Below, one piece after another: positions 4,705 to 42,021 of a stretch of DNA of 64,000 bases. Numbering within the stretch: position 1 is the stretch's first letter; each line of letters begins with the position of its first letter. The stretch covers positions 1,644,706 through 1,708,705 of the forward strand of contig NZ_OZ253527.1 in the NCBI RefSeq assembly GCF_965262375.1, given 5' to 3'. The notes beneath the pieces are model-generated. The model saw only the letters and a list, made by a program, of their open reading frames with translations, did not search any database and was not told the DNA's origin. This DNA is from Flavobacterium sp. (lineage in GTDB: Bacteria > Bacteroidota > Bacteroidia > Flavobacteriales > Flavobacteriaceae). A program made the translations under genes and the position numbers.

Positions 4705-4930
4705 GATTGCGATATTTTTTTGAAATATAGATATTTTGTTTAAATAAAAAAATTTTTTCAGGTTTTTTTTTGGCTGTTATTATTTTGTTTGAAAGTTGTA
4801 CCTAGCAGTTTTGTAAAACTGTTGGAGTTTTGTTTTTGTTAATTTATTGTGTGTTAGAGAATTGTGTTTATGTTGGTTTCGGGTTGTGTTTTTTTTTGAA
4901 AAAAAATCTTGTGAAAATAGAATTTAGTGT

Positions 4931-27994: not shown

Positions 27995-28654
27995 ATGCCT
28001 AAATTACATGTTTATTTTATGCCAGGAATGGCAGCGAGTTCTACTATTTTTGAACGAATACAATTACCCGAGGATTTATTTGAGATGCATTTGTTGGAGT
28101 GGGTCATGCCATTACCTCAAGAGTCTTTAAAAGATTATGCTAAAAGAATGTCTGCAACTATAACCGAAGAAAATGTGGTGCTAGTAGGAGTATCTTTTGG
28201 TGGTGTTTTGGTACAAGAAATGGCGCAGTTTATTGCTCCCAAAAAAGTAATTATCATTTCCAGTATTAAGAGTAATGTGGAGTTGCCTACTCGAATGAAA
28301 ATTGCAAAAAAAACAAAGTTGTATAAGTTTTTGCCTACTGGCTTGGCTAAAAATGTAGAAACGTTAGCTAAGTATGTTTTCGGTAAAGGAATTGTGAAGC
28401 AGCGTATTGAATTATATAAAAAGTTCTTGACTCGTATCGAAAAAGAATATCTCGATTGGGCTATTGAGCAGATTGTGTGTTGGGATCGTGAAGAAGCAGA
28501 TGCAAGCGTAGTGCATATTCATGGCGATGCAGATGAGATGTTTCCTGTAAAGAATATTCAAAATTATATCAATATTAAAGGAGGAACACATATTATGATA
28601 TTGAGTAAGTATAAATGGTTAAATGAGAATTTGCCTCAAATAATTTTAGCTTAA
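27995..28654 (+). CDS. Alpha/beta hydrolase
   Basis: FMPGMAA, GVSFGG nucleophile elbow, HIHGDAD and GGTH. Confidence 0.88.
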   Translation: MPKLHVYFMPGMAASSTIFERIQLPEDLFEMHLLEWVMPLPQESLKDYAKRMSATITEENVVLVGVSFGGVLVQEMAQFIAPKKVIIISSIKSNVELPTRMKIAKKTKLYKFLPTGLAKNVETLAKYVFGKGIVKQRIELYKKFLTRIEKEYLDWAIEQIVCWDREEADASVVHIHGDADEMFPVKNIQNYINIKGGTHIMILSKYKWLNENLPQIILA

Positions 28655-28655
28655 A

Positions 28656-29498
28656 ATGAAATTTAAAATAGTTGCCGTAGTGCTTTTTGTTGTGGGTTTG
28701 ATGTTAATGAGTGTCAAACATCTCTGTGAGTTTCCTGAAAAAATGGATTTCTGTGGTGAGGAAGTGCCCTTGTATATAACTGATGTAAAAGAACGTTTGG
28801 ATAGAGAATTGGTGGTTAATCAAAACATGCATGGTTCTACAATTATGATATTGAAACGTGCTAATCGTTTCTTTCCAGTCATCGAGCCGATTTTGAAAGA
28901 AAAAAATGTTCCAGACGATTTTAAATATCTAGCAGTCATTGAAAGTTCATTGACTAATGCAACGTCATCGGCGGGGGCTAAAGGATTTTGGCAATTTATG
29001 CCACAAACGGCTCGTGAAAAAGGGATGGAAGTTAGTGAAATCGTTGATGAACGGTATCATTTAGAAAAAGCGACCTATGCAGCATGTGACTATTTGTTGA
29101 AAGCGAAAGAAAAATTTGGCTCTTGGACTTTGGCGGCTGCTTCTTATAATGGCGGTATGAATGGCATTCAGAAAGCCATTGACCAGCAATTAGTGACTAA
29201 TTATTACGATTTGTTGCTCACCGATGAAACCTTTCGCTATGTGTTTAGAATTTTAGCTTTGAAAGAAATCATGCAGAATACGGCGAAATATAATTTTAAT
29301 CTAAAAACGGAGGAGTTGTATCCAGTTGTAAAAACCCAAAAAATTGAGGTGGACAGTACGATTACTGATTTGGCACGATTTGCAAAAGCGCAAGGTGTGA
29401 ATTATAAAGAGTTGAAATTGTATAACCCTTGGTTGCGTGATACCAAATTGGATAATCCCTCAAAGAAAAAATATATTTTAGAGATACCCGTAAAATAA
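28656..29498 (+). CDS. Lytic transglycosylase (SLT domain)
   Basis: YLAVIESS, AKGFWQFM and AASYNGG motifs. Confidence 0.92.
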   Translation: MKFKIVAVVLFVVGLMLMSVKHLCEFPEKMDFCGEEVPLYITDVKERLDRELVVNQNMHGSTIMILKRANRFFPVIEPILKEKNVPDDFKYLAVIESSLTNATSSAGAKGFWQFMPQTAREKGMEVSEIVDERYHLEKATYAACDYLLKAKEKFGSWTLAAASYNGGMNGIQKAIDQQLVTNYYDLLLTDETFRYVFRILALKEIMQNTAKYNFNLKTEELYPVVKTQKIEVDSTITDLARFAKAQGVNYKELKLYNPWLRDTKLDNPSKKKYILEIPVK

Positions 29499-29504
29499 TA
29501 GAAA

Positions 29505-29873
29505 ATGAGTGTAGGAACAATTGTAGCTTTAATAATTACTGGTTTGTTGGCTGGTATGCTGAGTGGACTGGTAGGTGTAGGTGGTGGTATTATCATGGTA
29601 CCCATGATGGTGTTTGTGTTGGGGTTTTCGCAGCATCAGGCACAAGGAACAAGTTTAGCGGTATTGGTTGTTCCTGTTACTGCACTTGCTGTGATGAACT
29701 ATTATAAAGAAGGTTATATCAACTGGAAATATGCGGCGGTTATTGCGCTGTTTTTTGTTGTAGGTAGTTACTTTGGTAGTAAAATAGCAGTCAATATAGA
29801 TCAAAAAATGCTGAAAAAAGTTTTCAGCATTATATTGGTGGCTATTGGTACCAAAATGTTTTTTGATAAATAA
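29505..29873 (+). CDS. TauE/SafE-family membrane protein (half-size)
   Basis: GLVGVGGGIIMVP and AQGTSL motifs. Confidence 0.85.
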   Translation: MSVGTIVALIITGLLAGMLSGLVGVGGGIIMVPMMVFVLGFSQHQAQGTSLAVLVVPVTALAVMNYYKEGYINWKYAAVIALFFVVGSYFGSKIAVNIDQKMLKKVFSIILVAIGTKMFFDK

Positions 29874-29880
29874 TTACAAA

Positions 29881-30591
29881 TTAATTAGAATCAGATAGCT
29901 GATCGTTACCTAGGTTTTTGTTTATTAAAATAGTGTTTAATCCTTCTCTAAATGTGTTATAATTCATTGTTAAAGCTGTATTATAACTGCTGTTTAACTT
30001 TGGGTGTGCACCACCTCTTCTGATTTTAACGACATTTAAATTTTCATCCAGAAAGAATGAAGTAGGGAATCCTAACGAGTGTTTTAAATGCGCTACAATT
30101 GGAGCGTCATTTTGATACGATTCGTTAGCATAGCAAACTTCGATGTTGTGATTGAATTTGTTAGCGATTTTTTTGATATTCTTTCTTTTGTCCCAAAAAA
30201 GTAAGATGAATTGTACTTCTTTAGCGTGTTTTTGTGCTAACTTGTTTAAAGCTTGAAATTCTCCTTTGCTAGGAACACACCATGAAGCGTAAGTAAGAAT
30301 GAATATTGGCTTCTGAATAGCGCTCAGTTGAAGTTTTTTTCTTTCAAAAGTTTTAAGTGTATAATCTTCAAATTTAGTGCCTGCCAAATGGTAGTCAACC
30401 AAAGAATCAAATAATACTTGAGTTAGTTCAATATTATTTTTTTCAAAAGCTTGATTAACCTTAGTGTTGTATTTACCTAGATTGCTTCTTAAGGCATCGG
30501 CAAAAGAATTTGATTTTGGTTGTTCTTGATCTTGAGAAAAACCAGTCAATGCGATTAATAACGTAACAATGTATAGGTATATCTGTTTCAT
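29881..30591 (-). CDS. Secreted thioredoxin-fold (TlpA-like) protein
   Basis: Signal peptide, YASWCVPS (CxxS-like) and GFPTSFFLD. Confidence 0.75.
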   Translation of the reverse strand: MKQIYLYIVTLLIALTGFSQDQEQPKSNSFADALRSNLGKYNTKVNQAFEKNNIELTQVLFDSLVDYHLAGTKFEDYTLKTFERKKLQLSAIQKPIFILTYASWCVPSKGEFQALNKLAQKHAKEVQFILLFWDKRKNIKKIANKFNHNIEVCYANESYQNDAPIVAHLKHSLGFPTSFFLDENLNVVKIRRGGAHPKLNSSYNTALTMNYNTFREGLNTILINKNLGNDQLSDSN

Positions 30592-30741
30592 AATTAACTT
30601 TTATTTGTTGCGAAGTTAATATGCTCATTTTAAACCTTGTAAAAAAGTCGATAAAATGTTTTTTTACTCGATTATCTACATAAATATATTAAAAAAACCG
30701 CGCCAATGGTGCGGTTTTCGAGATTTTAACATTTACTGTAG

Positions 30742-31257
30742 TTAAATTCTTCTTAATTGCTCTTTCATCATCGCAATTTGATCTTTTAACATATTATGTT
30801 TGTCTAATTTCTTTGCTTCGTTTAAAAGGTTTGTTGCTTCTAGTTTTCTTCTTCTTGATAAGGCAATCCCTGCAAGGTTTAATTTAGCTAAAGCCAAATC
30901 CTGATCCATGGATAAGCCTAAGCTAATGGCTTTCTTGAAGAATTTCTCAGCTTGGTTTAAGTTAGTTTGTGAAACCATTAACCCATTTAAGTAGTTGTAA
31001 TACCCTTGTTGTTTTTGAATTAAAGCGGTTTCAGGGTTTTTGATTTTGTCTAACCACATTTTAGCGCCTGCAAAATCCTGATTTCTTAATTTTAAAAAGG
31101 CTAATAAAATATATTCGTTTTTGAAATAAAGTAAGATTGGAATAATCGTTAATAGTAACAAGAAGATTCCGTTTCCAATATTACTTTCTGTAAATTGCCA
31201 AATTGCAGTAACGAATAATAGACCTGCAAGAATTAATTTGATATTTCTGTGAAACAT
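30742..31257 (-). CDS. Membrane-anchored TPR-like protein (DUF2892-annotated family)
   Basis: Two TM helices then helical repeats; start set at MFHRNIK. Confidence 0.7.
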   Translation of the reverse strand: MFHRNIKLILAGLLFVTAIWQFTESNIGNGIFLLLLTIIPILLYFKNEYILLAFLKLRNQDFAGAKMWLDKIKNPETALIQKQQGYYNYLNGLMVSQTNLNQAEKFFKKAISLGLSMDQDLALAKLNLAGIALSRRRKLEATNLLNEAKKLDKHNMLKDQIAMMKEQLRRI

Positions 31258-31481
31258 AATTTTTTGTTTATTGCGTTGCAAATATAGAAAAGTTAAGCTA
31301 GATATAGAACATGTTTTATTTACTGATATATTTAATTTTTTGAGGAAGAAAAAAGAAATGAAAATTTGAAATTATTTTTACAAAGCTATTGCAGAAATAA
31401 AAAATGGTTGTATATTTGCACTCGGTTTTCAGAAAAGCCGAATAGTTAAGAAAAATATACAAGATTTAAAGATACCAAATT

Positions 31482-31643
31482 ATGAGTAAGAGAACATTTC
31501 AACCATCGAAAAGAAAAAGAAGAAATAAACACGGATTTATGGAAAGAATGGCTTCTGCAAACGGAAGAAAAGTTCTTGCTCGTCGTCGTGCTAAAGGAAG
31601 ACATAAATTAACTGTTTCTTGTGAACCAAGACATAAAAAATAA
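31482..31643 (+). CDS. rpmH: 50S ribosomal protein L34
   Basis: Translated by hand: [53 protein letters not shown]. Below the ORF-track cutoff; TATATTTG box at 31411-31418. Confidence 0.97.
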
Positions 31644-31796
31644 TGATTGGAAACAATCAGATACTAAGGCGTTACTTTTATTGGTAACGCCTTTTTTTTA
31701 AAGTCTCAAGTCTAAATTTTTAGTATTGAGCTGTATACATCGCCGAATGTTTACAAAGAATTACCAAAAATACAACAACACATACAACACAACACA

Positions 31797-34652
31797 ATGC
31801 CTAAAGACACTTCTATTAAATCGGTTTTAATTATTGGGTCAGGTCCCATTATTATTGGTCAAGCTTGCGAATTTGATTACTCTGGATCACAATCTGCTCG
31901 CTCCTTAAGAGAAGAAGGAATCGAAGTTATCTTAATCAATTCGAATCCAGCCACCATCATGACCGACCCTTCTATGGCGGATCATATTTATTTAAAACCA
32001 TTAACTACCAAATCAATTATTGAAATCCTTAAAGCGCATCCGCAAATTGATGCTGTGCTTCCTACTATGGGAGGACAAACAGCTTTGAATTTGTGTTTAG
32101 AAGCTGAAGATAAAGGGATATGGAAAGATTTTGGAGTTAAATTAATCGGGGTAGATGTTAATGCTATCAATATTACCGAAGATAGAGACCAATTTAAGGA
32201 TTTATTAAATAAAATTGGAATTCCACAAGCACCAGCTAAAACGGCTAACTCTTTCTTAAAAGGAAAAGAAATTGCTCAGGAGTTTGGTTTTCCATTAGTT
32301 ATCCGTCCCTCGTTTACTCTTGGAGGAACTGGAGCGGCTTTTGTGCATAAAAAAGAAGATTTCGATACCTTATTAACACGTGGTTTAGAGGCTTCGCCTA
32401 TTCATGAAGTACTTATTGATAAAGCACTTTTAGGTTGGAAAGAATATGAATTAGAATTATTGCGTGATAAAAATGATAATGTTGTTATTATTTGTACCAT
32501 CGAGAATATGGACCCAATGGGAATCCATACAGGAGATAGTATCACAGTGGCGCCAGCCATGACATTATCAGATACAATATTCCAAAAAATGCGTGACATG
32601 GCAATGCACATGATGCGTAGCATTGGAAACTTTGCAGGTGGATGTAACGTACAGTTTGCAGTTTCACCAGATGAAAATGAAGATATAGTTGCCATCGAAA
32701 TCAATCCACGTGTATCGCGTTCTTCTGCATTAGCATCAAAAGCAACTGGATATCCTATTGCTAAAATTGCAACAAAATTAGCACTAGGGTATACCTTAGA
32801 TGAATTGCAAAATCAAATTACAAAATCAACTTCGGCTTTATTTGAGCCTACCTTAGACTATGTGATTGTAAAAATTCCTCGTTGGAACTTTGATAAATTT
32901 GAAGGTTCAGATAGAACTTTAGGTTTGCAAATGAAATCCGTGGGGGAGGTAATGGGTATTGGTCGTTCGTTCCAAGAAGCTTTACACAAAGCAACGCAAT
33001 CGTTAGAAATTAAGCGTAACGGTTTAGGGGCTGATGGTAAAGGATACAAAAATTACGAGCAAATCATCGAAAAACTTACACATGCAAGTTGGGATAGAGT
33101 TTTCGTAATTTACGATGCTATTGCTATGGGGATTCCATTGTCAAGAATTCACGAAATCACTAAAATTGATATGTGGTTTTTGAAAGAATACGAGGCTTTA
33201 TATTTGTTAGAGAAAGAAATTTCAAAATTTACTTTAGATACGCTTCCTAAAGAATTATTATTAGAAGCCAAACAAAAAGGTTACGGTGACCGCCAGATTG
33301 CACACATGTTAGGCTGTTTAGAAAGTCAGGTTCACACACTTCGTGATACCATGAACATTCAACGTGTGTATAAGTTGGTAGATACGTGTGCGGCTGAGTT
33401 TAAAGCGCAAACACCTTATTACTATTCTACTTTTGAAGCTGAAATTGAAAAAGCAGATGGTACAAAGTATGTGCATAATGAAAGTGTAGTTTCTGATAAG
33501 AAAAAAATTGTAGTTCTAGGTTCAGGACCTAACCGAATTGGACAAGGGATTGAGTTTGACTACTCTTGTGTACACGGGGTTTTAGCCGCTAAAGAATCTG
33601 GTTATGAAACTATCATGATTAACTGTAATCCTGAAACGGTTTCAACTGATTTTGATACTGCTGATAAATTATACTTCGAACCAGTTTTCTGGGAACATAT
33701 TTACGACATTATCCGTCATGAAAAACCTGAAGGTGTAATTGTTCAGTTAGGTGGTCAAACCGCTTTAAAATTAGCTGAAAAATTAAGCAAATACGGAATT
33801 AAGATTATCGGAACTTCATTTGATGCCTTAGACTTGGCAGAAGACCGTGGTCGTTTTTCAGAATTATTAACGGAGTTGAATATCCCTTTCCCTAAGTTTG
33901 GAGTTGCTGAAAACGCAGAACAAGCGGTTAAGTTAGCGGATGAATTAGACTTCCCATTATTGGTACGTCCTTCGTATGTATTAGGTGGTCAAGGCATGAA
34001 GATTGTAATCAACAAGCAGGAGCTTGAAGAGCACGTAATCGAGATTTTAAAACACATACCTAATAATAAATTGTTGTTAGACCATTATTTAGATGGGGCT
34101 ATCGAGGCAGAAGCAGATGCAATTTGTGATGCGGATGGTAATGTGTACATTATCGGTATTATGGAGCATATCGAACCTTGTGGTGTACACTCAGGAGATA
34201 GTAACGCTACCTTGCCTCCATTTAACTTAGGGGAGTTTGTTATGCAGCAAATTAAAGACCATACTGAAAAAATTGCAAAAGCATTAAAAACGGTGGGTCT
34301 AATCAATATTCAGTTTGCAATTAAAGATGATATGGTGTACATTATTGAGGCTAATCCACGAGCTTCTCGTACCGTACCATTCATTGCAAAAGCGTATGGT
34401 GAACCGTATGTAAATTATGCTACTAAAGTGATGTTAGGGGAGAAGAAAGTCACTGATTTTGATTTCAATCCACAATTAAACGGATTTGCTATCAAACAAC
34501 CCGTGTTCTCTTTCAATAAATTTCCTGGGGTAAACAAAGCTTTAGGGCCTGAAATGAAATCTACAGGAGAAAGTATCTTGTTTATTGATGACTTAAAAGA
34601 TGACCAATTCTACGAATTGTATTCAAGAAGAAAGATGTATTTAACGAAGTAA
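31797..34652 (+). CDS. carB: Carbamoyl-phosphate synthase large subunit
   Basis: GSGPIIIGQACEFDYSG, two ATP-grasp halves and GPEMKSTGE; 951 aa. Confidence 0.98.
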   Translation: MPKDTSIKSVLIIGSGPIIIGQACEFDYSGSQSARSLREEGIEVILINSNPATIMTDPSMADHIYLKPLTTKSIIEILKAHPQIDAVLPTMGGQTALNLCLEAEDKGIWKDFGVKLIGVDVNAINITEDRDQFKDLLNKIGIPQAPAKTANSFLKGKEIAQEFGFPLVIRPSFTLGGTGAAFVHKKEDFDTLLTRGLEASPIHEVLIDKALLGWKEYELELLRDKNDNVVIICTIENMDPMGIHTGDSITVAPAMTLSDTIFQKMRDMAMHMMRSIGNFAGGCNVQFAVSPDENEDIVAIEINPRVSRSSALASKATGYPIAKIATKLALGYTLDELQNQITKSTSALFEPTLDYVIVKIPRWNFDKFEGSDRTLGLQMKSVGEVMGIGRSFQEALHKATQSLEIKRNGLGADGKGYKNYEQIIEKLTHASWDRVFVIYDAIAMGIPLSRIHEITKIDMWFLKEYEALYLLEKEISKFTLDTLPKELLLEAKQKGYGDRQIAHMLGCLESQVHTLRDTMNIQRVYKLVDTCAAEFKAQTPYYYSTFEAEIEKADGTKYVHNESVVSDKKKIVVLGSGPNRIGQGIEFDYSCVHGVLAAKESGYETIMINCNPETVSTDFDTADKLYFEPVFWEHIYDIIRHEKPEGVIVQLGGQTALKLAEKLSKYGIKIIGTSFDALDLAEDRGRFSELLTELNIPFPKFGVAENAEQAVKLADELDFPLLVRPSYVLGGQGMKIVINKQELEEHVIEILKHIPNNKLLLDHYLDGAIEAEADAICDADGNVYIIGIMEHIEPCGVHSGDSNATLPPFNLGEFVMQQIKDHTEKIAKALKTVGLINIQFAIKDDMVYIIEANPRASRTVPFIAKAYGEPYVNYATKVMLGEKKVTDFDFNPQLNGFAIKQPVFSFNKFPGVNKALGPEMKSTGESILFIDDLKDDQFYELYSRRKMYLTK

Positions 34653-34782
34653 GATTCGATATATGTAAAACGGCTGTTTAGAGAAACAGCCGTTTTTTTG
34701 TTTTATACATATTTTACATTGGATAAACTAAATTGAAATGGAGTTGCATTTGCGCCAAGTTCACTCCTTGTTATGACAATAT
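34396..34782 (+). repeat. Left copy of ~390 bp direct repeat (carB 3' end + terminator + 3' end of convergent gene)
   Basis: Aligns by eye with 42022-42409. Confidence 0.95.
34667..34699. terminator. Bidirectional terminator after carB
   Basis: AAAACGGCTGTTT-AGAG-AAACAGCCGTTTT. Confidence 0.88.
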
Positions 34783-34865
34783 AGTAGTTGTAATTCCTAA
34801 AAAACTGATTTTCTGTATTGATGTCTAGCTAGTAAAGTAGCAATAATAAAAGTATCTTCTTCTTA
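34703..34865 (-). pseudogene. Decayed 3' remnant of the gene intact at 42330-42953
   Basis: Minus strand reads DINTE/ISFLGITTT/IVITRSELGANATPFQFSLSNVKYV* versus intact NINTELSLLGIASADIVMTGGGPGANATPFQFSLTNVKYV*, with frameshifts. Confidence 0.8.
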
Positions 34866-35636
34866 AGAAATTAACTCTAATAAAATTAGCAAAATTAAAT
34901 CAAAATGGGTTTTTTATGTATGTGAAATGCCTATTCGTAAGATAAATGGAGGGAGTATTAGTTAGAAAATGTATTTTTGAAAATATTTTAGACTAATATG
35001 AAGATCAGGGTTATTATAGTAGATGATGAGATGCATGCTCGAAACTTTCTTGCAAAATTTTGTGAGCGTTATTACTCAGGCTTAATTGAAGTTGTGGATG
35101 CGTGTAATTCTGTAGAAACTGCCGTGCGTTCTATTAAAAAATATCAGCCGGATGTTGTTTTTTTGGATGTGCAAATGCCCGATGAAAATGGTTTTGAACT
35201 TATTAAGTATTTTGATAAAATAAATTTTGAAATAATTTTTACTACAGCATATAAAGAGTACGCAATTCAGGCTATTCGAAATAGCGCTTTAGATTATCTT
35301 GTAAAACCAATTAATGCTGACGATTTTAAGATAGCAATTTCTCGTTTTGAGACCAAGAAGGAAACAAAAATTTCATTTGATCGCTTTAAATTGCTAACTG
35401 AAAATATAAATAATCAATTTGTTGATAAACAAAGAATTGTATTTCCTACCAAAATTGGGTTTGAAGTAATACAAGGAAATTCTATTGTATACTGTAAATC
35501 AGATGGGTCTTATTCGAATGTGTGCACGATAGATAATGAATATTTTACTTCAAAATCGTTTAAAGAAGTTGAAGAAATGCTTGCAGATTCTAGTTTTATT
35601 CGTGTTCATAGAAGTTATTTGGTTAATAAAAATTTT

Positions 35637-36596
35637 TAGAGGTCATCAATTAACTACATACTAATTCCTTTTGATTAATTTTATCTGCCTTTACCATTTT
35701 ATTAATCAAATTGTGAAAGATTGATTCTTTATTTTGAGAACGATTTATTCTGTAACAAAACTCGTTAAAATAACGCTGAATATTTCCATCACTTACCCAA
35801 GAATGAGTCGTTCTAATCCAAGTTTTAACTTGATGAATCATTGTGTGTAAAGCTTTGAAGTTGGAACCATTTTTACTAAGAATTTGAGTGATATTATACT
35901 CTTCTGAAATAGGTGCGTATCCTTTCCACTTGTCAGTGGTTATTTTTGCTTCTTTTTCAATGTGTTTGTCAAAAATTTGACGAAGTGATTTTGAAGAAAA
36001 GTCCTTTATTTTAAGAATGTAAAATCGTTTAACTTTCCCGTCTTCTGTTAATTCTAGGGCGCAAACAGCCTTTTTCTTCTTGCTATCATAACTTCTTCCC
36101 TGTTTAGTTTCTTCATGACCTCCTACAACAAATTCGTCGACATGAACAATACCATCCATTGGATGATTTTCACTAGATTTCATGGATTCTCTAACTTTAT
36201 GCATAAACAAACGAGCGGTGTTTTCCTGAACTCCATAACGTACACTCATCTGCAGAGCAGAAAGGCTTTTAGTAGTGGTAGCCATTTCAAAACAGATAAA
36301 AAATGCTTTTCTCAAGCCAAATTTACATTTGTGAAAAAGGGTATTGGCACTACTAGATTCTGTATGACTACAAATATTACAAGTCCTAGAAAAATCTTTC
36401 CGAATTTGACTAGCTGTATGACCACATTTTCTACATAAAAAACCTTCTTTCCACTTCAAATCTGACAAATATTTTTTGCAATCTTCATCTGTTTTGAAGC
36501 ATTCAGCAAACTCTAAGAGGTTTTGTCCTTTAAAAATTTCCATTTTTCTCAGTATTTACAATACTTTAAAGATATGAAATTATCTAATGACCTCAA
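35637..36596 (-). mobile_element. IS1595-family insertion sequence
   Basis: IRs TAGAGGTCAT and (rc) TTGAGGTCAT; 8-bp target duplication AAAATTTT at 35629-35636 and 36597-36604. Confidence 0.92.
35650..36543 (-). CDS. IS1595-family transposase
   Basis: N-terminal Zn ribbon (CRKCGH..CNICSH), VDEFVVGG, TDKWKGY and YFNEFCYRINR. Confidence 0.95.
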   Translation of the reverse strand: MEIFKGQNLLEFAECFKTDEDCKKYLSDLKWKEGFLCRKCGHTASQIRKDFSRTCNICSHTESSSANTLFHKCKFGLRKAFFICFEMATTTKSLSALQMSVRYGVQENTARLFMHKVRESMKSSENHPMDGIVHVDEFVVGGHEETKQGRSYDSKKKKAVCALELTEDGKVKRFYILKIKDFSSKSLRQIFDKHIEKEAKITTDKWKGYAPISEEYNITQILSKNGSNFKALHTMIHQVKTWIRTTHSWVSDGNIQRYFNEFCYRINRSQNKESIFHNLINKMVKADKINQKELVCS

Positions 36597-36701
36597 AAAA
36601 TTTTATTAAAGGATTTAAATCGGATGAGTACAAGTTAGAGTTGATTACTGGGGAGACTATTCCTGTTTCGGATGCTTTATTTTCTAAAAAGAAACTAATA
36701 G

Positions 36702-39686
36702 ATGCGATTACGAATTAGTTTGTTTTTTCTTTTTTTCTACAGTTTTATTTTCTCCCAGCAGTATGTATCTACTAATTATACTACTGCAAATGGGTTGCCT
36801 AATAATGCCGTTCGATCCCTATTTATTGACAAAGAGAATGTATTATGGATTGGAACTGAAAATGGAGTTTCTCGTTTTTTAAATGGATCATTTTATACTA
36901 TTACACAAGATGATGGATTAGGTTATAATAGTTGTTGGGATATAGCTCAAGACAAAAACGGCAATATGTGGTTTGCCAGCTATGGCGGTGGAGTCAGTAA
37001 ATTTGATGGAAAGAAGTTTTATAGTTTTACCTCAAAAAACGGTTTACCTGCCGATAAAACGCGAAAAGTATTTCATTTTAAAAATAAAATTTACGTTGGT
37101 ACGGAACAAGGAATAGCTATAATTGACATCAATACCCATAAGATGATTATCCCAAAAGTACCAAAAACTAAGGAGGATTTCATTTGTATTGATTTTTTTG
37201 TATATAAGGATGAAGTTTATTTTGTAAGTGTTTTTGAAGGGCTTTATAAAATTGATTATAGTCAAAGAGTTCCTAAAGTAAATTTAGTTTTTAAAAACAA
37301 GAATAATTATAGTACGCATTTAGTAGGAGAAAATTTGTTTATTGGTAATGAAGGTTATCTTCAAAAAGCAAATATTCAAGCTTTACTTTCTGAAAAAAAG
37401 GAATTCGAAAAACTAAAAAGTTCTATATTCTGGGATTACGCACAACGTAACAAAGAAATTCTATATGCAGCAGCTGACGGAGTATATAATCCTGATGGAG
37501 GATTGTTTCAGATTAAAGGTTCATCTATTTGTAATGTTTCCAACTTATTCGGAATTGACTCCAAAATTTTATTGAATGTTGTTTATGATAAGCGTAACGA
37601 TATACTTTATGTAGGTTCGAATGATAAAGGAATTTATGAAGTTCGTTTGGACAAATCGATTCAATATTATCCTTTTCAAGAAAAAAATATCATTGATATA
37701 GAAAGTATCAATACGTCAAGATTTATACTTCATAATGAAGGTATTTCTGTTTTAAACAAGAATAATGAAAAGATATGCGAAGTTAATCAAAATAATTTCA
37801 AAGCATTTGAAATCGCAACTATAACAAAGGCAAAAAGGACTATAGCCACTAATTATAGGGAGTCAAGAGATTTTGAACTCAATTTTAATATACCCGCAAG
37901 AGGTATTGTTTTTTATGAGTTGGTAAAACATAATAATTCTATATGGATTGGAAGTAATTTAGGTATTTTTGAACTAAACGAAAGAGGGAATATTGTAAAT
38001 TATATCCCTAAACACAGCTTAAAAATTGGTTTCACTATTGATGATAAATTTATTGAAACGATTACTTACGGAGGGCTCTATTTGTACGATGATGTTTATA
38101 AACTCCAAGGAAAACACTTTTCAAAATTCGAAAATGCAACACCACAATTTATAGTTAAGATCTTGAATAACCGCAAGAAAACTTATTTGATTTCGGTGTT
38201 TAACGGTTTGTTTTCGTATTCTAATGGAAAATTTACCTCGTTTTTGTTTGAAAATATATGGAATGAGAAAAAATTCAAACATATCACTTCTGATGCTAAA
38301 GGCAATTTGATTTTAGCAGCCGAGTTTGGAACTGTTTTCGTTGTAAATGATCAAGACAAATTTAAAATAATTAAAACCATTCCTAAAAAAGACATTGTTG
38401 GGAATAGTATTAATTTTTTAGAGTCGTATAAAGATTACATATTAATTGGTACTGAAAAAGGAATTAATGTGTATCAAAATGGGGTTATTCGATTACTAGA
38501 CAAGGAACATGGTTTAAACGATTGTAATTTTAAAACTTCACAATTATTCCAAGACGAATTGTGGCTTGGAACCCTAAAGGGATACTATGTTTTAAACCTT
38601 GCTAAATTGTTGTCAGCACAGCAAACTGTAAAAGATATTGCTATAAATGGAATTGCTATTAATAACCAACCTATTGCTAAAAGCAAGTATGACTGGTTTA
38701 CATATGCTAATAATGAACTTATTTGTGATTACAAACACAATTCTTTTTCAATTGATTTTGTCCCTAAAGGGCATCTTTTTGCGGATAAATTAAAATTTCG
38801 TTATCGATTAAATAATGGGAATCGCTGGAGTCCATATAGCGATAAAACCAATGTTTTCTTGTCCTATTTACCTTATGGGGCTTACAATTTAGAGATTGAA
38901 GTATTTGACCAAAATACGGGTAAGATATCTTTGTTTAAGCTCTTGAAAATTGTAATTCAGCCACCATTTTGGTTGCGTTGGTGGTTTTTTGTTATTGTTT
39001 TATTGATAGTCATTTCAATAGTCATTTTCATAGTTTACAATTATAAACGACGCAGTAGAGAACGCATACTTATAGAGAAAAGGTTAGCTGAAACCAAGAT
39101 GGAAGCTTTACTTTCGCAAATGAATCCGCATTTTACTTTTAATGCTATGAATACCGTTCAGGATTTTATAATCAGTAATGATGTGGATAATTCGTTGTTG
39201 TTTATCAGTGAATTGGCTCGTTTGATGCGACTTACTTTAGATAATTCATCTCAAAAGTCCATTCCTTTGAACGAAGAAATAGATTTTTTAAAAACCTATA
39301 TTAAACTTGAAAATTTGCGTTTTGGCAATCGCATCCAAGTAACAATTACTATTGACGAGGCTATTGATGCTCATTTTATAGCGGTGCCTCCTATGCTTTT
39401 TCAACCCTTTATAGAAAATGTGTTTGTACATGCTTTTAATGAGGAACATCCAAATCCTACTTTAGATATCTCATTTAAACTAAAAGAAAAACATCTGTTG
39501 GTTTGTCAAATTAAAGATAACGGAAAAGGAAAAGCTTCTTTTGAAAAGGTGAAATTGCATAAATCGAAAGCATTACTTTTAGCCGAGGAAAGACTTCGTT
39601 TGATTCAACCACAGATTTTAAATCCAATTACTACAAATTTTACAGAATTTGACGGGACGTCTATTGTGATTTTACTGCAAATTTAA
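36702..39686 (+). CDS. LytS-type sensor histidine kinase with beta-propeller/Y_Y_Y sensor region
   Basis: Signal peptide, propeller repeats (LWIGTENG, MWFASYGGG), Y_Y_Y region, TM, SQMNPHFTFN and IKDNGKG. Confidence 0.92.
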   Translation: MRLRISLFFLFFYSFIFSQQYVSTNYTTANGLPNNAVRSLFIDKENVLWIGTENGVSRFLNGSFYTITQDDGLGYNSCWDIAQDKNGNMWFASYGGGVSKFDGKKFYSFTSKNGLPADKTRKVFHFKNKIYVGTEQGIAIIDINTHKMIIPKVPKTKEDFICIDFFVYKDEVYFVSVFEGLYKIDYSQRVPKVNLVFKNKNNYSTHLVGENLFIGNEGYLQKANIQALLSEKKEFEKLKSSIFWDYAQRNKEILYAAADGVYNPDGGLFQIKGSSICNVSNLFGIDSKILLNVVYDKRNDILYVGSNDKGIYEVRLDKSIQYYPFQEKNIIDIESINTSRFILHNEGISVLNKNNEKICEVNQNNFKAFEIATITKAKRTIATNYRESRDFELNFNIPARGIVFYELVKHNNSIWIGSNLGIFELNERGNIVNYIPKHSLKIGFTIDDKFIETITYGGLYLYDDVYKLQGKHFSKFENATPQFIVKILNNRKKTYLISVFNGLFSYSNGKFTSFLFENIWNEKKFKHITSDAKGNLILAAEFGTVFVVNDQDKFKIIKTIPKKDIVGNSINFLESYKDYILIGTEKGINVYQNGVIRLLDKEHGLNDCNFKTSQLFQDELWLGTLKGYYVLNLAKLLSAQQTVKDIAINGIAINNQPIAKSKYDWFTYANNELICDYKHNSFSIDFVPKGHLFADKLKFRYRLNNGNRWSPYSDKTNVFLSYLPYGAYNLEIEVFDQNTGKISLFKLLKIVIQPPFWLRWWFFVIVLLIVISIVIFIVYNYKRRSRERILIEKRLAETKMEALLSQMNPHFTFNAMNTVQDFIISNDVDNSLLFISELARLMRLTLDNSSQKSIPLNEEIDFLKTYIKLENLRFGNRIQVTITIDEAIDAHFIAVPPMLFQPFIENVFVHAFNEEHPNPTLDISFKLKEKHLLVCQIKDNGKGKASFEKVKLHKSKALLLAEERLRLIQPQILNPITTNFTEFDGTSIVILLQI

Positions 39687-39812
39687 CTTCATTTTTGTTT
39701 TTCGTAGGGTAAATAGTAGCTCCTGTATTTGTTTTTATCCAATTCATAAAGTTATTTATTAGTTTGATTTTTTGCGGATTATTTTCGTGATATAAATTTA
39801 TAAACTAATATT

Positions 39813-40226
39813 ATGTCAAAAGTTGAAAACAAACTCAATCAAATTGAGAAATCTTTTAAATCTTCTGAAAAAGAAGCTGAAATTTTAATAAAAGATAAAC
39901 AAAAAACAACTAATACAGTAAACGAAGCAATGGAAAAAGCTTCTAAGCATAAAAACCAATTAGAAAAAGTTTGGGATTATTTGCAATTGTTTTTTTCGAT
40001 AGTAAAAGATTATATAAATGGCAATTATAAACAAATTCCTTTAGCAACTATTATTTCAATTGTAGCATCACTAATATATTTAATTTCACCTATTGATTTT
40101 ATTCCTGATTTTATTCCTGGAATTGGTCTAATTGACGATGTTTTTGTAATCGGTTTGGTAATTAGTAGTGCAACTAGCGATTTAGATAAATATAAAGAAT
40201 GGAAAGAAAGCAAGAGTTTAATATAA
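39813..40226 (+). CDS. YkvA/DUF1232 family membrane protein
   Basis: YLISPIDFIPDFIPGIGLIDD motif. Confidence 0.9.
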   Translation: MSKVENKLNQIEKSFKSSEKEAEILIKDKQKTTNTVNEAMEKASKHKNQLEKVWDYLQLFFSIVKDYINGNYKQIPLATIISIVASLIYLISPIDFIPDFIPGIGLIDDVFVIGLVISSATSDLDKYKEWKESKSLI

Positions 40227-41341
40227 TGAGAATTTTATTTTTCATTTTATTTAGTTCATTCGCTTTTTCTCAAAGTTTTATAACGGAGTTAGCTGATAAA
40301 ACAGTTGGTAAGTTTCTTTATGATAAAAATATAAAAATCGTTAATGACAGTATTGATATATTTCTGAGAGTAAATTCTAAAGGATATTGTTATGCTCTAG
40401 ACTTTGTGTCAAATGACAAAACCAAATTTACTTTGAGTGATCAAGCAATAGCTCATAAAGTTAACAAAGATTTTGAATGGATATATAATGATTCTATTAC
40501 TGTGGAAAGTTTAAAGTATGATGAATATCAGTCTTGTGGCGATTACCTTTCTCATCGTGGTAGGAATCATCGTTATGATAACTATGTCAATCATGCTAAT
40601 TCAGAAAAACAGATTTACATAATTTTAAATTCTGACAAAGGTTATGCCGTACTCGTAGAACCTGATGATGTCGATTTTTTGACTCCAAATAATGAAGGAG
40701 AAAGTAATAGTTCTATAGATGATTGGATTGAATTTCAGACTTTACAAGAAGGTATTAGCTTTTTAAAAAGCGATGAAGTTATTTTTAAAGCTAATAAATT
40801 AAGACAGGTTCAAGAAGACATTCAAAGGAAAAATGAAGAAATGAGAAAATTTCCAATTTCATCACTCGAATTGCCTTATAAATTTAGATTTGGAATGTCG
40901 GAGCAAACTGTAGCAAATCATTTGAAAGAAATATTTAAAAGTTATACCAAACATGAAATAACTAGTTCTCGTTTTGCAAATGCTAAGAAAAAAAGAGTGT
41001 ATAAAGAGATGGAATATGTAATCACTGAAAATACCACTTATCTTAAAATAGAGTTGTGTTTTTTATATGATAAAATAATCAAAATTGGATACAGCCATTG
41101 GGATAAAAATCATTCAAGATTATACGATTTAGATTTAAAAATTCAAAGTAAACTAACAGCAATCAAAAATGAATACGGGTTATTGTTTGATATTTTATTT
41201 TCTAATAGTCAAATTGAAGGAGCGCACCAAATATGGAGTATAAGCGAAAATGAAAGATTAATTTTTGAAGAAAAATTTTTTGAAGAAGAAAAATTTCAAC
41301 GAAGTAAAGAAATTGAAAATAAAATAGGTAATAAAATGTAA
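40226..41341 (+). CDS. Hypothetical secreted protein
   Basis: Signal peptide MRILFFILFSSFAFSQ; TAATG coupling to the upstream gene. Confidence 0.7.
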   Translation: MRILFFILFSSFAFSQSFITELADKTVGKFLYDKNIKIVNDSIDIFLRVNSKGYCYALDFVSNDKTKFTLSDQAIAHKVNKDFEWIYNDSITVESLKYDEYQSCGDYLSHRGRNHRYDNYVNHANSEKQIYIILNSDKGYAVLVEPDDVDFLTPNNEGESNSSIDDWIEFQTLQEGISFLKSDEVIFKANKLRQVQEDIQRKNEEMRKFPISSLELPYKFRFGMSEQTVANHLKEIFKSYTKHEITSSRFANAKKKRVYKEMEYVITENTTYLKIELCFLYDKIIKIGYSHWDKNHSRLYDLDLKIQSKLTAIKNEYGLLFDILFSNSQIEGAHQIWSISENERLIFEEKFFEEEKFQRSKEIENKIGNKM

Positions 41342-41343
41342 CT

Positions 41344-41994
41344 ATGAAGGCAAAATTTTTAATCATATTAATATTAACCACAATAATTTCGTTTGGTCAA
41401 AAGAAAAAAACAGCAAATACCATAGACCAACAAGTAATAGCGTATTTAAATAAGTTTGAAAAGTTAGATAAATATCAACAACGAATTGAGGCTAACAAAT
41501 TAGTTGCTTTTTTAAATAATACGGATCCTAAAACTAAAGGACTCTGGTTGTTGGCTTTACAAAAATACGATAAAACATCTGTGAAAAAGAAAGCAGAAGC
41601 AAATGAAAGTTCAGAAACAAAGTCAGATTCTAATGCGATTATTGTTAGTACTTTTTCAAGTATTCCGTCAGATTTTGAAGGATGTAGCCATGTTTTTTCT
41701 ATTAATAAGGAAGCACTAAAAGCCGAAAAATTTGTTTATTTTGATGATATGGGGACAACTGCTATCATTGCGATAAATGGTGAAAGTATTATTTTAAAGA
41801 AGCACTCAAGTTTTATAGAAGGAGAAGATGAAATCATGATATATTCCAATGAGGTATTTTCTGCTTATGTACATTTAAAAAAGTATCTAGGAGATAGTTC
41901 AAACGAAAGCCAAATCTATACTGCAGAATTAGTGGTGAAGGATAAAAAAGGTAATGTTGTTAAAGCTAAAATATACGGAGAAGGCGGATGCTAA
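41344..41994 (+). CDS. Hypothetical secreted protein
   Basis: Signal peptide; two Cys, C-terminus IYGEGGC. Confidence 0.7.
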   Translation: MKAKFLIILILTTIISFGQKKKTANTIDQQVIAYLNKFEKLDKYQQRIEANKLVAFLNNTDPKTKGLWLLALQKYDKTSVKKKAEANESSETKSDSNAIIVSTFSSIPSDFEGCSHVFSINKEALKAEKFVYFDDMGTTAIIAINGESIILKKHSSFIEGEDEIMIYSNEVFSAYVHLKKYLGDSSNESQIYTAELVVKDKKGNVVKAKIYGEGGC

Positions 41995-42021
41995 GTGATT
42001 TTTACTGAAAAATTATTTCAG

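Follow-up and report, generated by a model that had tools for sequence, protein, structure and literature searches.

Genomic islands and prophages that are inserted by an integrase into gene or tRNA 3' ends carry a replacement 3' end. Among Prochlorococcus islands, tycheposons have cargo bounded by partial tRNA repeat arrays, with tRNAs as targets and dedicated recombinases. Replacement-type flexible genomic islands, described by Rodriguez-Valera and colleagues, are reportedly swapped through a double crossover in the conserved genes that flank them. In Escherichia coli, the H47 genomic island (microcin H47) comprises 13 kb, has extensive imperfect direct repeats and lacks a recombinase of its own; recombination in different identity segments generates hybrid repeats, and its excision and integration were shown experimentally and are RecA-independent (PMC3191183, PMC5426353). 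Here we describe a 7.6 kb island located behind carB, the gene of the carbamoyl-phosphate synthase large subunit, in a 64,000-nt stretch (the window) of a 3.14 Mb, single-contig Flavobacterium genome. The island is bracketed by copies of the last 257 bases of carB. The right copy together with the sequence that follows it (42022-42357) is probably part of an integrase-free island that spreads by homologous recombination via a repeat that runs from the carB end through the terminator into the end of the adjacent gene.

The locus was compared to two relatives, A (158 kb) and B (2.04 Mb), which were reached via cluster look-ups and are two contigs of one ENA metagenome assembly (ERZ26695388). A has an empty site and B carries the island. 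The left and right carB-end copies of the window are referred to as W_L and W_R, and the working end and the right fragment of B as B_L and B_R. All coordinates are those of the window, and features lie on the forward strand unless stated otherwise.

The nearest described case is the H47 island, with which the window island shares long imperfect direct repeats, hybrid repeats and the lack of a recombinase of its own. However, movement of H47 was shown experimentally whereas the window island is known from sequence alone, and the window repeats are built from an essential gene's 3' end and terminator, with allele patches exchanged with the host. As in integrase-borne islands, gene-end direct repeats bracket the island, the target gene is intact and a spare fragment is situated at the far side. 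In contrast to these islands, the window has no integrase, its repeats are ~360 bp long and 92-94% alike instead of forming a short identical core, and its spare fragment travels with the island; a displaced host end is found only in the distal part of B_R. The resemblance to replacement islands concerns the region between carB and the ClC gene, where A has p207 and DUF1963 and B has the five-gene module, and the apparent co-transfer of the carB allele. Unlike in such islands, the window holds both gene sets in tandem, and its island brings its own flank copy, the carB-end fragment, as a portable right arm. Successive cassettes each bounded by a target-gene fragment, found in three other species of the genus (G378, G383 and G014), recall tycheposons, which differ by their dedicated recombinases and tRNA targets.

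The working copy of carB is an intact open reading frame of 951 amino acids (31797-34652), and the copies in relatives match CPSase_L in Pfam. Alignment and codon-by-codon comparison showed that the first 127 bp of the left repeat (34396-34522) equal 42022-42148 without any mismatch. The adjoining 130 bp (34523-34652 vs 42149-42278) contain 14 differences: 12 synonymous third-position changes (34523, 34562, 34565, 34568, 34577, 34586, 34592, 34595, 34604, 34625, 34631 and 34634), one missense change in the right copy (GTA to GCA, V to A; left position 34531, right 42157) and one nonsense change, also in the right copy (GAA to TAA; left position 34551, right 42177-42179). This count is exactly the one reported in the initial annotation. 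At the divergence rate of these 130 bp, the absence of any difference in the preceding 127 bp has a probability of P = 5e-7. The right carB fragment, bearing the V-to-A change and the TAA, comprises the last 85 codons (42022-42278).

The repeat extends past carB through a 40-bp identical spacer, a terminator and the last 55 bp of p207, a gene of 207 amino acids convergent with carB, to 34757/42384. On the left, the spacer and the bidirectional terminator (34653-34702, hairpin 34667-34696) are identical to A and are followed by a 55-bp stub of the p207 3' end on the reverse strand (34703-34757). On the right, the rest of the repeat (42279-42357) includes the spacer, the terminator (42293-42322) and the last p207 codons. 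The stems of both terminator copies are identical, with the 4-nt loop flipped from AGAG (34680-34683) to CTCT (42306-42309); the right copy has an additional T, and A shows AGAG. Within the homology, identical blocks alternate with 10%-diverged blocks, and beyond 34757/42384 similarity between the copies drops to ~60%. Over 34758-34860, on the reverse strand, the left side continues as a frameshifted remnant of a distant p207 homologue (~60%), which is of the same type as the left end in B and forms the left edge of the island.

A Nei-Gojobori count over the 130 bp (S = 24.0 sites, N = 105 sites) yielded a synonymous divergence (dS) of 0.82, a non-synonymous divergence (dN) of 0.019 and a dN/dS of 0.023 between the carB ends. 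The probability of at least 12 synonymous changes among 14 is 1e-7 under neutrality and 4e-5 with one copy constrained and the other freely decaying. The enrichment of synonymous sites, first noted in the initial annotation, thus holds in a formal count, and the differences are not spread over codon positions as expected for a pseudogene decaying without selection. Since 12 of the 14 differences are synonymous and dN/dS is as low as 0.02, the two carB ends are, judged by their substitution pattern, diverged once-functional alleles apart from two decay mutations. This agrees with the initial annotation, which had regarded them as different functional alleles and not as a copy and its decay product. 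In the outgroup set of 47 loci, one per species, Val and Glu are present at the two altered codons throughout, and the V-to-A change and the stop codon are therefore attributed to decay.

Outside carB, A is ~99.7% identical to the window on the left and 99.4% right of the locus. At its empty site, carB is directly convergent with p207, which is followed by DUF1963 and the ClC channel gene. The flanks of B are only 86-93% identical to the window (~86% upstream of carB, 92.6% on the right), whereas its island is 98.0% identical. The island is therefore more alike between the window and B than the core flanks are, as expected upon horizontal transfer. In B, the last cargo gene is followed by the 257-bp carB fragment, B-specific DNA and the ClC gene, and p207 and DUF1963 are absent.

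B_R shares with W_R the 27-bp joint between cargo end and carB fragment (41995-42021, identical in B), 34523C, the V-to-A change, the stop codon, 34562G and 34592T. The presence of the joint and both decay mutations in the island of B implies that the fragment and its stop codon travel with the island and predate its acquisition in the window lineage. The window and B differ by 2% in the island and the window and A by ~0.3% in the flanks, which places the duplication and the nonsense mutation before that acquisition. The V-to-A change and the stop codon arose once, in a fragment already joined to the island.

The working end of the window (34523-34652) is of the common allele type, with 1 difference to A, 2 to B_L and 14 to W_R. 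In a tree of the carB ends, these five sequences form one clade (97/97), in which the three working ends (window, A and B_L) sit on zero-length branches and W_R pairs with B_R (89/80). The tree check proposed for the two window ends consequently placed them apart and not with one and the same allele. Even the nearest species representatives reach only 84-87% identity in the carB end, so that the two window copies resemble each other far more than they resemble any other sampled species. No representative was nearer to W_R than to W_L, and no source lineage of the right-copy allele was found among them; degenerate patterns for this allele had no match in either of the two collections.

Over the first 127 bp, W_L and W_R share five synonymous variants (34403, 34421, 34434, 34436 and 34451) that none of A, B_L and B_R has, and B_L equals B_R. 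This identity of W_L with W_R and of B_L with B_R implies that the copies were homogenised within each genome. Distal to 34562, W_R and B_R differ as a single block. Here the window has eight private changes, all synonymous, while B_R has three synonymous changes and then passes into B-specific DNA right after the stop codon; from B_L, this distal part of B_R differs at synonymous sites only. Most simply, the distal part of either fragment would be the native carB end of a former recipient, and the proximal part older DNA brought by the island. The two right fragments change type at nearly the same place, 34563-34591.

Further right, positions 34723, 34726 and 34730 are A-type in W_L, and the equivalent sites of W_R (42350, 42353 and 42357) are B_L-type. 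Past the 27-bp block AATTGAAATGGAGTTGCATTTGCGCCA (34731-34757), which closes the effective homology, the types swap: W_L turns into the diverged remnant common to B, and W_R becomes identical to A. Compared to A, W_R has 29 mismatches in 42022-42357, where the DNA foreign to A ends, and then none for 796 bp (42358-43153). The recombination window at which identity to A begins is 42358-42384. W_L has only 2 mismatches to A over 34452-34757. That this match proves W_L to be the resident end was considered and weakened, as A may have arisen by excision and B also has the transition at 34757/34758, which is hence old.

The carB body is mosaic as well. Between the window and A there are 96 nucleotide differences, affecting 92 codons (86 synonymous and 6 non-synonymous). 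Mismatches amount to 0.30% in 28201-31926, 3.7% in 31927-34451, 0.65% in 34452-34757 and 0.25% right of 42358. The block 31927-34451 is private to the window, with 79 sites at which A equals B and the window differs; it starts sharply at 31927 and ends at 34451. A patch at 32400-32650 diverges from A by ~10-16%. DNA foreign to A spans 31927-42357. Across carB, A and B share 98.7% identity, with no difference in 31777-32600; their near-identity starts at about 31450-31477, just upstream of which they are 10-40% diverged. Since the carB genes of A and B are alike and the neighbouring DNA is only 86-93% identical, carB alleles cross lineage boundaries with or beside the island. As in the hybrid repeats of H47, W_L, W_R and B_R are mosaics, with boundaries at 34452-34522, 34563-34591 and 34731-34757.

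In the spread of the island by homologous recombination, which we consider the probable explanation, the ~360 bp of bracketing homology would serve as recombination substrate between related lineages, with carB itself as the other arm, and every passage could swap allele patches between the island fragment and the working end of the host. The fragment would then be composed of an old proximal piece, reaching from the joint to 34562 and including the V-to-A change and the stop codon, and of a distal piece that stems from the functional carB end of a previous host. Derivation from a working end would account for the eight private differences being purely synonymous. The identity of the first 127 bp would result from gene conversion within one genome, either here or in the donor. 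Homogenisation of this kind is observed elsewhere in the genus, as the carB fragments of zeta-toxin cassettes resemble the working end of their own genome.

The structure of the locus, the joint and mutations common to B, the allele types and the boundaries are seen in the sequences themselves, and both the route and the recombining enzyme are inferred from them. The boundary that can be dated to this lineage is 42358-42384, and its partner lies at 34731-34757 or near 31927. Along one route, an island circle would have entered by a single crossover in the 27-bp block (34731-34757/42358-42384), with the first 127 bp homogenised later. Along the other, 31927-42357 would have come in one import from a donor in which both repeats were already present. 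This second route would account for the private carB variants abutting the island, but would leave the A-like segment 34452-34757 to the history of the donor or to patchy repair. In B, carB and the island may have been imported together with the fragment as right arm, which would be expected to yield an A-like carB body from ~31477 and a fragment running straight into B-specific DNA. B itself was not the donor of the window island, because, where the window has its terminator, B_L (L051, 4182-4310) has ~100 bp of other sequence that contains a separate hairpin (GGCTGTCC...GGACAGCC).

Several points weigh against this explanation. The collections hold only three haplotypes of the locus (window, A and B), two of them from one metagenome assembly, and consensus mixing in carB is possible. 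Should A stem from a deletion between the repeats, its agreement with W_L would follow by construction and would carry no independent weight. The private variants of the carB body run into the repeat, and body and W_R can be read as one diverged allele, at least for an earlier host. Moreover, either of the two routes is possible, the collections searched yielded no allele from which the eight private variants could derive, and an empty-site conspecific was encountered but neither a circle nor an excision product. The island-borne fragment predicts naive strains with a common-type end, an AGAG loop and ATAAACTAAA, as well as, in some other lineage, a working carB that has the right-copy allele at its 3' end.

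The initial annotation had proposed that the working carB of this genome took a donor 3' end by crossover in the identical stretch and that its own end was pushed to the right. For the window genome, with the crossover placed in 34396-34522 and the V-to-A change and stop codon acquired afterwards, we regard this as unlikely, although several observations speak for it: the working carB turns from private to common type between 34451 and 34523, W_R goes on with private, purely synonymous variants, the 127 identical bases would require no gene conversion, and the same kind of displacement is seen in the fragment of B. However, the joint and both mutations are common to the island of B, which would then have had to receive its island from this lineage, and the islands of the window and B are 2% diverged even though the flanks of the window and of A differ by only 0.3%. 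Furthermore, W_R is foreign compared to A up to 42357 and W_L matches A in 34452-34757, so that A would have to be both an excisant and carB-replaced. The rightward displacement of a resident end in this genome is contradicted by the island-borne joint and mutations and by the foreign W_R, and the working 3' end is of the type of A and B_L. As to the crossover, the working carB does switch type within the identical stretch, after 34451, but the datable boundary of this lineage lies at 42358-42384.

Displacement of the proposed kind is seen directly in B, where an A-like carB body goes with a fragment whose distal part continues into B's own downstream DNA. The allele switch at 34452-34522 together with the coherence of the private carB body with W_R indicates that it probably also happened in an earlier host of the window island. 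A crossover at 34562-34565 in the window genome itself, with an island-borne proximal and a native distal part, was considered and rejected. It explains the eight private sites and fails on the three sites past the terminator and on the 2% vs 0.3% divergence, unless it took place in an earlier donor.

Site-specific integration by a tyrosine or serine recombinase acting in trans on an attachment (att) core in the carB end or terminator, with the island and the cassettes being non-autonomous, is somewhat less probable still. It would fit the recurrent use of the carB 3' end across the genus, with a second match in 32 of 400 species and downstream fragments in all 12 inspected, and the near-identical place of the type switch in the right fragments of the window and B (34563-34591). 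There is also a precedent in the E. coli H47 island, which moves without a recombinase of its own and independently of RecA (PMC3191183, PMC5426353). But no recombinase was found in or beside any cargo examined, repeat lengths and left ends vary among species (18 to >84 codons), the boundary in the window lies 200 bp further right than that in B, and no conserved core was identified. In place of a short identical att core that gives way to unrelated DNA, the two ends show ~360 bp of homology, and the Pfam scan of all island open reading frames revealed no integrase and no tyrosine or serine recombinase. Finally, a local origin, in which the carB end was duplicated within this genome and the spare copy then decayed neutrally, is highly improbable and is refuted by the codon-position test and by B: the right copy does bear a stop codon and one missense change, but 12 synonymous changes among 14 differences have P = 4e-5 even with only one copy decaying, the same fragment is present in the other lineage B, and the site of the conspecific A is empty.

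The cargo of the island is a five-gene module (34938-41994) assigned by Pfam, 98% identical to B and without an integrase. It comprises a LytTR response regulator (34998-35639), a sensor kinase with Reg_prop and His_kinase domains (36702-39686), a DUF1232 protein (39813-40226) and two open reading frames for secreted hypothetical proteins (40199-41341 and 41344-41994). A distant version of the module (47-81% amino acid identity) is present in another context (L062) without carB or p207 pieces, which delimits the module proper to 34938-41994. The last island protein, used as query against the genome and metagenome contig collections, had no relatives.

The response-regulator gene of the window is split by an IS1595-family insertion sequence (IS) of 959 bp (35637-36595, reverse strand; transposase 35650-36543; target duplication AAAAATTTT), which leaves 213 of 250 codons, and the gene of B is intact (250 amino acids). 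The two-component system of the island is thus probably disabled in the window genome. Six copies of this element in the genome, four of them identical, imply recent activity. A composite transposon would have an IS at both ends, whereas the island has a lone internal IS1595 element with its own 9-bp duplication that is absent from B. IS-driven mobilisation of the island was therefore rejected.

The intact p207 gene (42330-42953, reverse strand), of no known function, has 1573 homologues of ~205 amino acids in Flavobacterium, Fluviicola and also Acidovorax, and belongs to no Pfam family; an exact look-up of the window's own p207 gave no match. Its C-terminal motif GANATPFQF supplies the conserved 27-bp block that closes the repeat homology.

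The genome belongs to a very large, Flavobacterium-like genus (>400 species sampled), and in our sample of 400 species a second carB-end match was detected in 32. Detailed inspection of 12 of these revealed in every case one or two carB 3' fragments located 0.8-4 kb downstream, in the same orientation and bracketing cargo. The cargos include a zeta-toxin-like gene (five species), a PIN toxin pair, lipoproteins, an ATP-grasp enzyme with a 528-amino-acid secreted protein, and an AAA_14/DUF4143 ATPase, and no recombinase was found in the cargo of these 12 other species. In G219, the fragment of at least 84 codons has 18 synonymous and 2 non-synonymous differences, compared to 6 and 1 in G014. Two downstream carB fragments each occur in G378, G383 and G014. 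At the G014 locus (L014), the second of these, which is the third carB end there and only 76% similar, is located beyond the PIN toxin cassette (4735-4789 of the reverse complement), and the arrangement in this species suggests successive insertions at the same site.

The zeta-toxin-like gene encodes 194 amino acids (Pfam Zeta_toxin, E 4e-8) and is convergent with carB (loci L052, L054, L056, L057 and L060 in species G191, G227, G355, G378 and G407), in an insert of ~820-870 bp between repeats of the carB end plus terminator. The zeta-cassette fragments share the species-specific spacer and terminator of their own genome. This resemblance to the own working end, including spacer and terminator, points to concerted evolution. 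In G355, the zeta-toxin-like gene is split into two open reading frames, and the carB locus is on contig C11; contig C24 (9219-36901) of this genome carries a 77%-similar second carB-end match and three short fragments, one of them inverted.

Gene-end duplications beside islands are usually read as the footprint of an integrase, and the far copy as the displaced end of the host. At this locus no integrase is present, the far copy is, on our reading, a passenger of the island that records earlier hosts, and essential carB itself is shuffled between lineages; the direction of transfer is not to be inferred from a single genome. More tentatively, in this large genus the duplicated carB 3' end and terminator might act as a portable homology arm that lets integrase-free cargo insert behind carB in any recipient, whatever lies downstream. 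If this were true, two-component systems, zeta-toxin-like and PIN toxin genes and lipoproteins would be cargos of such an arm, and every transfer would carry carB alleles along from species to species, with the fragment keeping a mosaic trace of the hosts it has passed through. It would amount to a general, recombinase-independent mode of island spread anchored on an essential gene, and, if general, the mechanism would account for the spread of small defence and toxin cassettes that lack mobility genes through the Bacteroidota.

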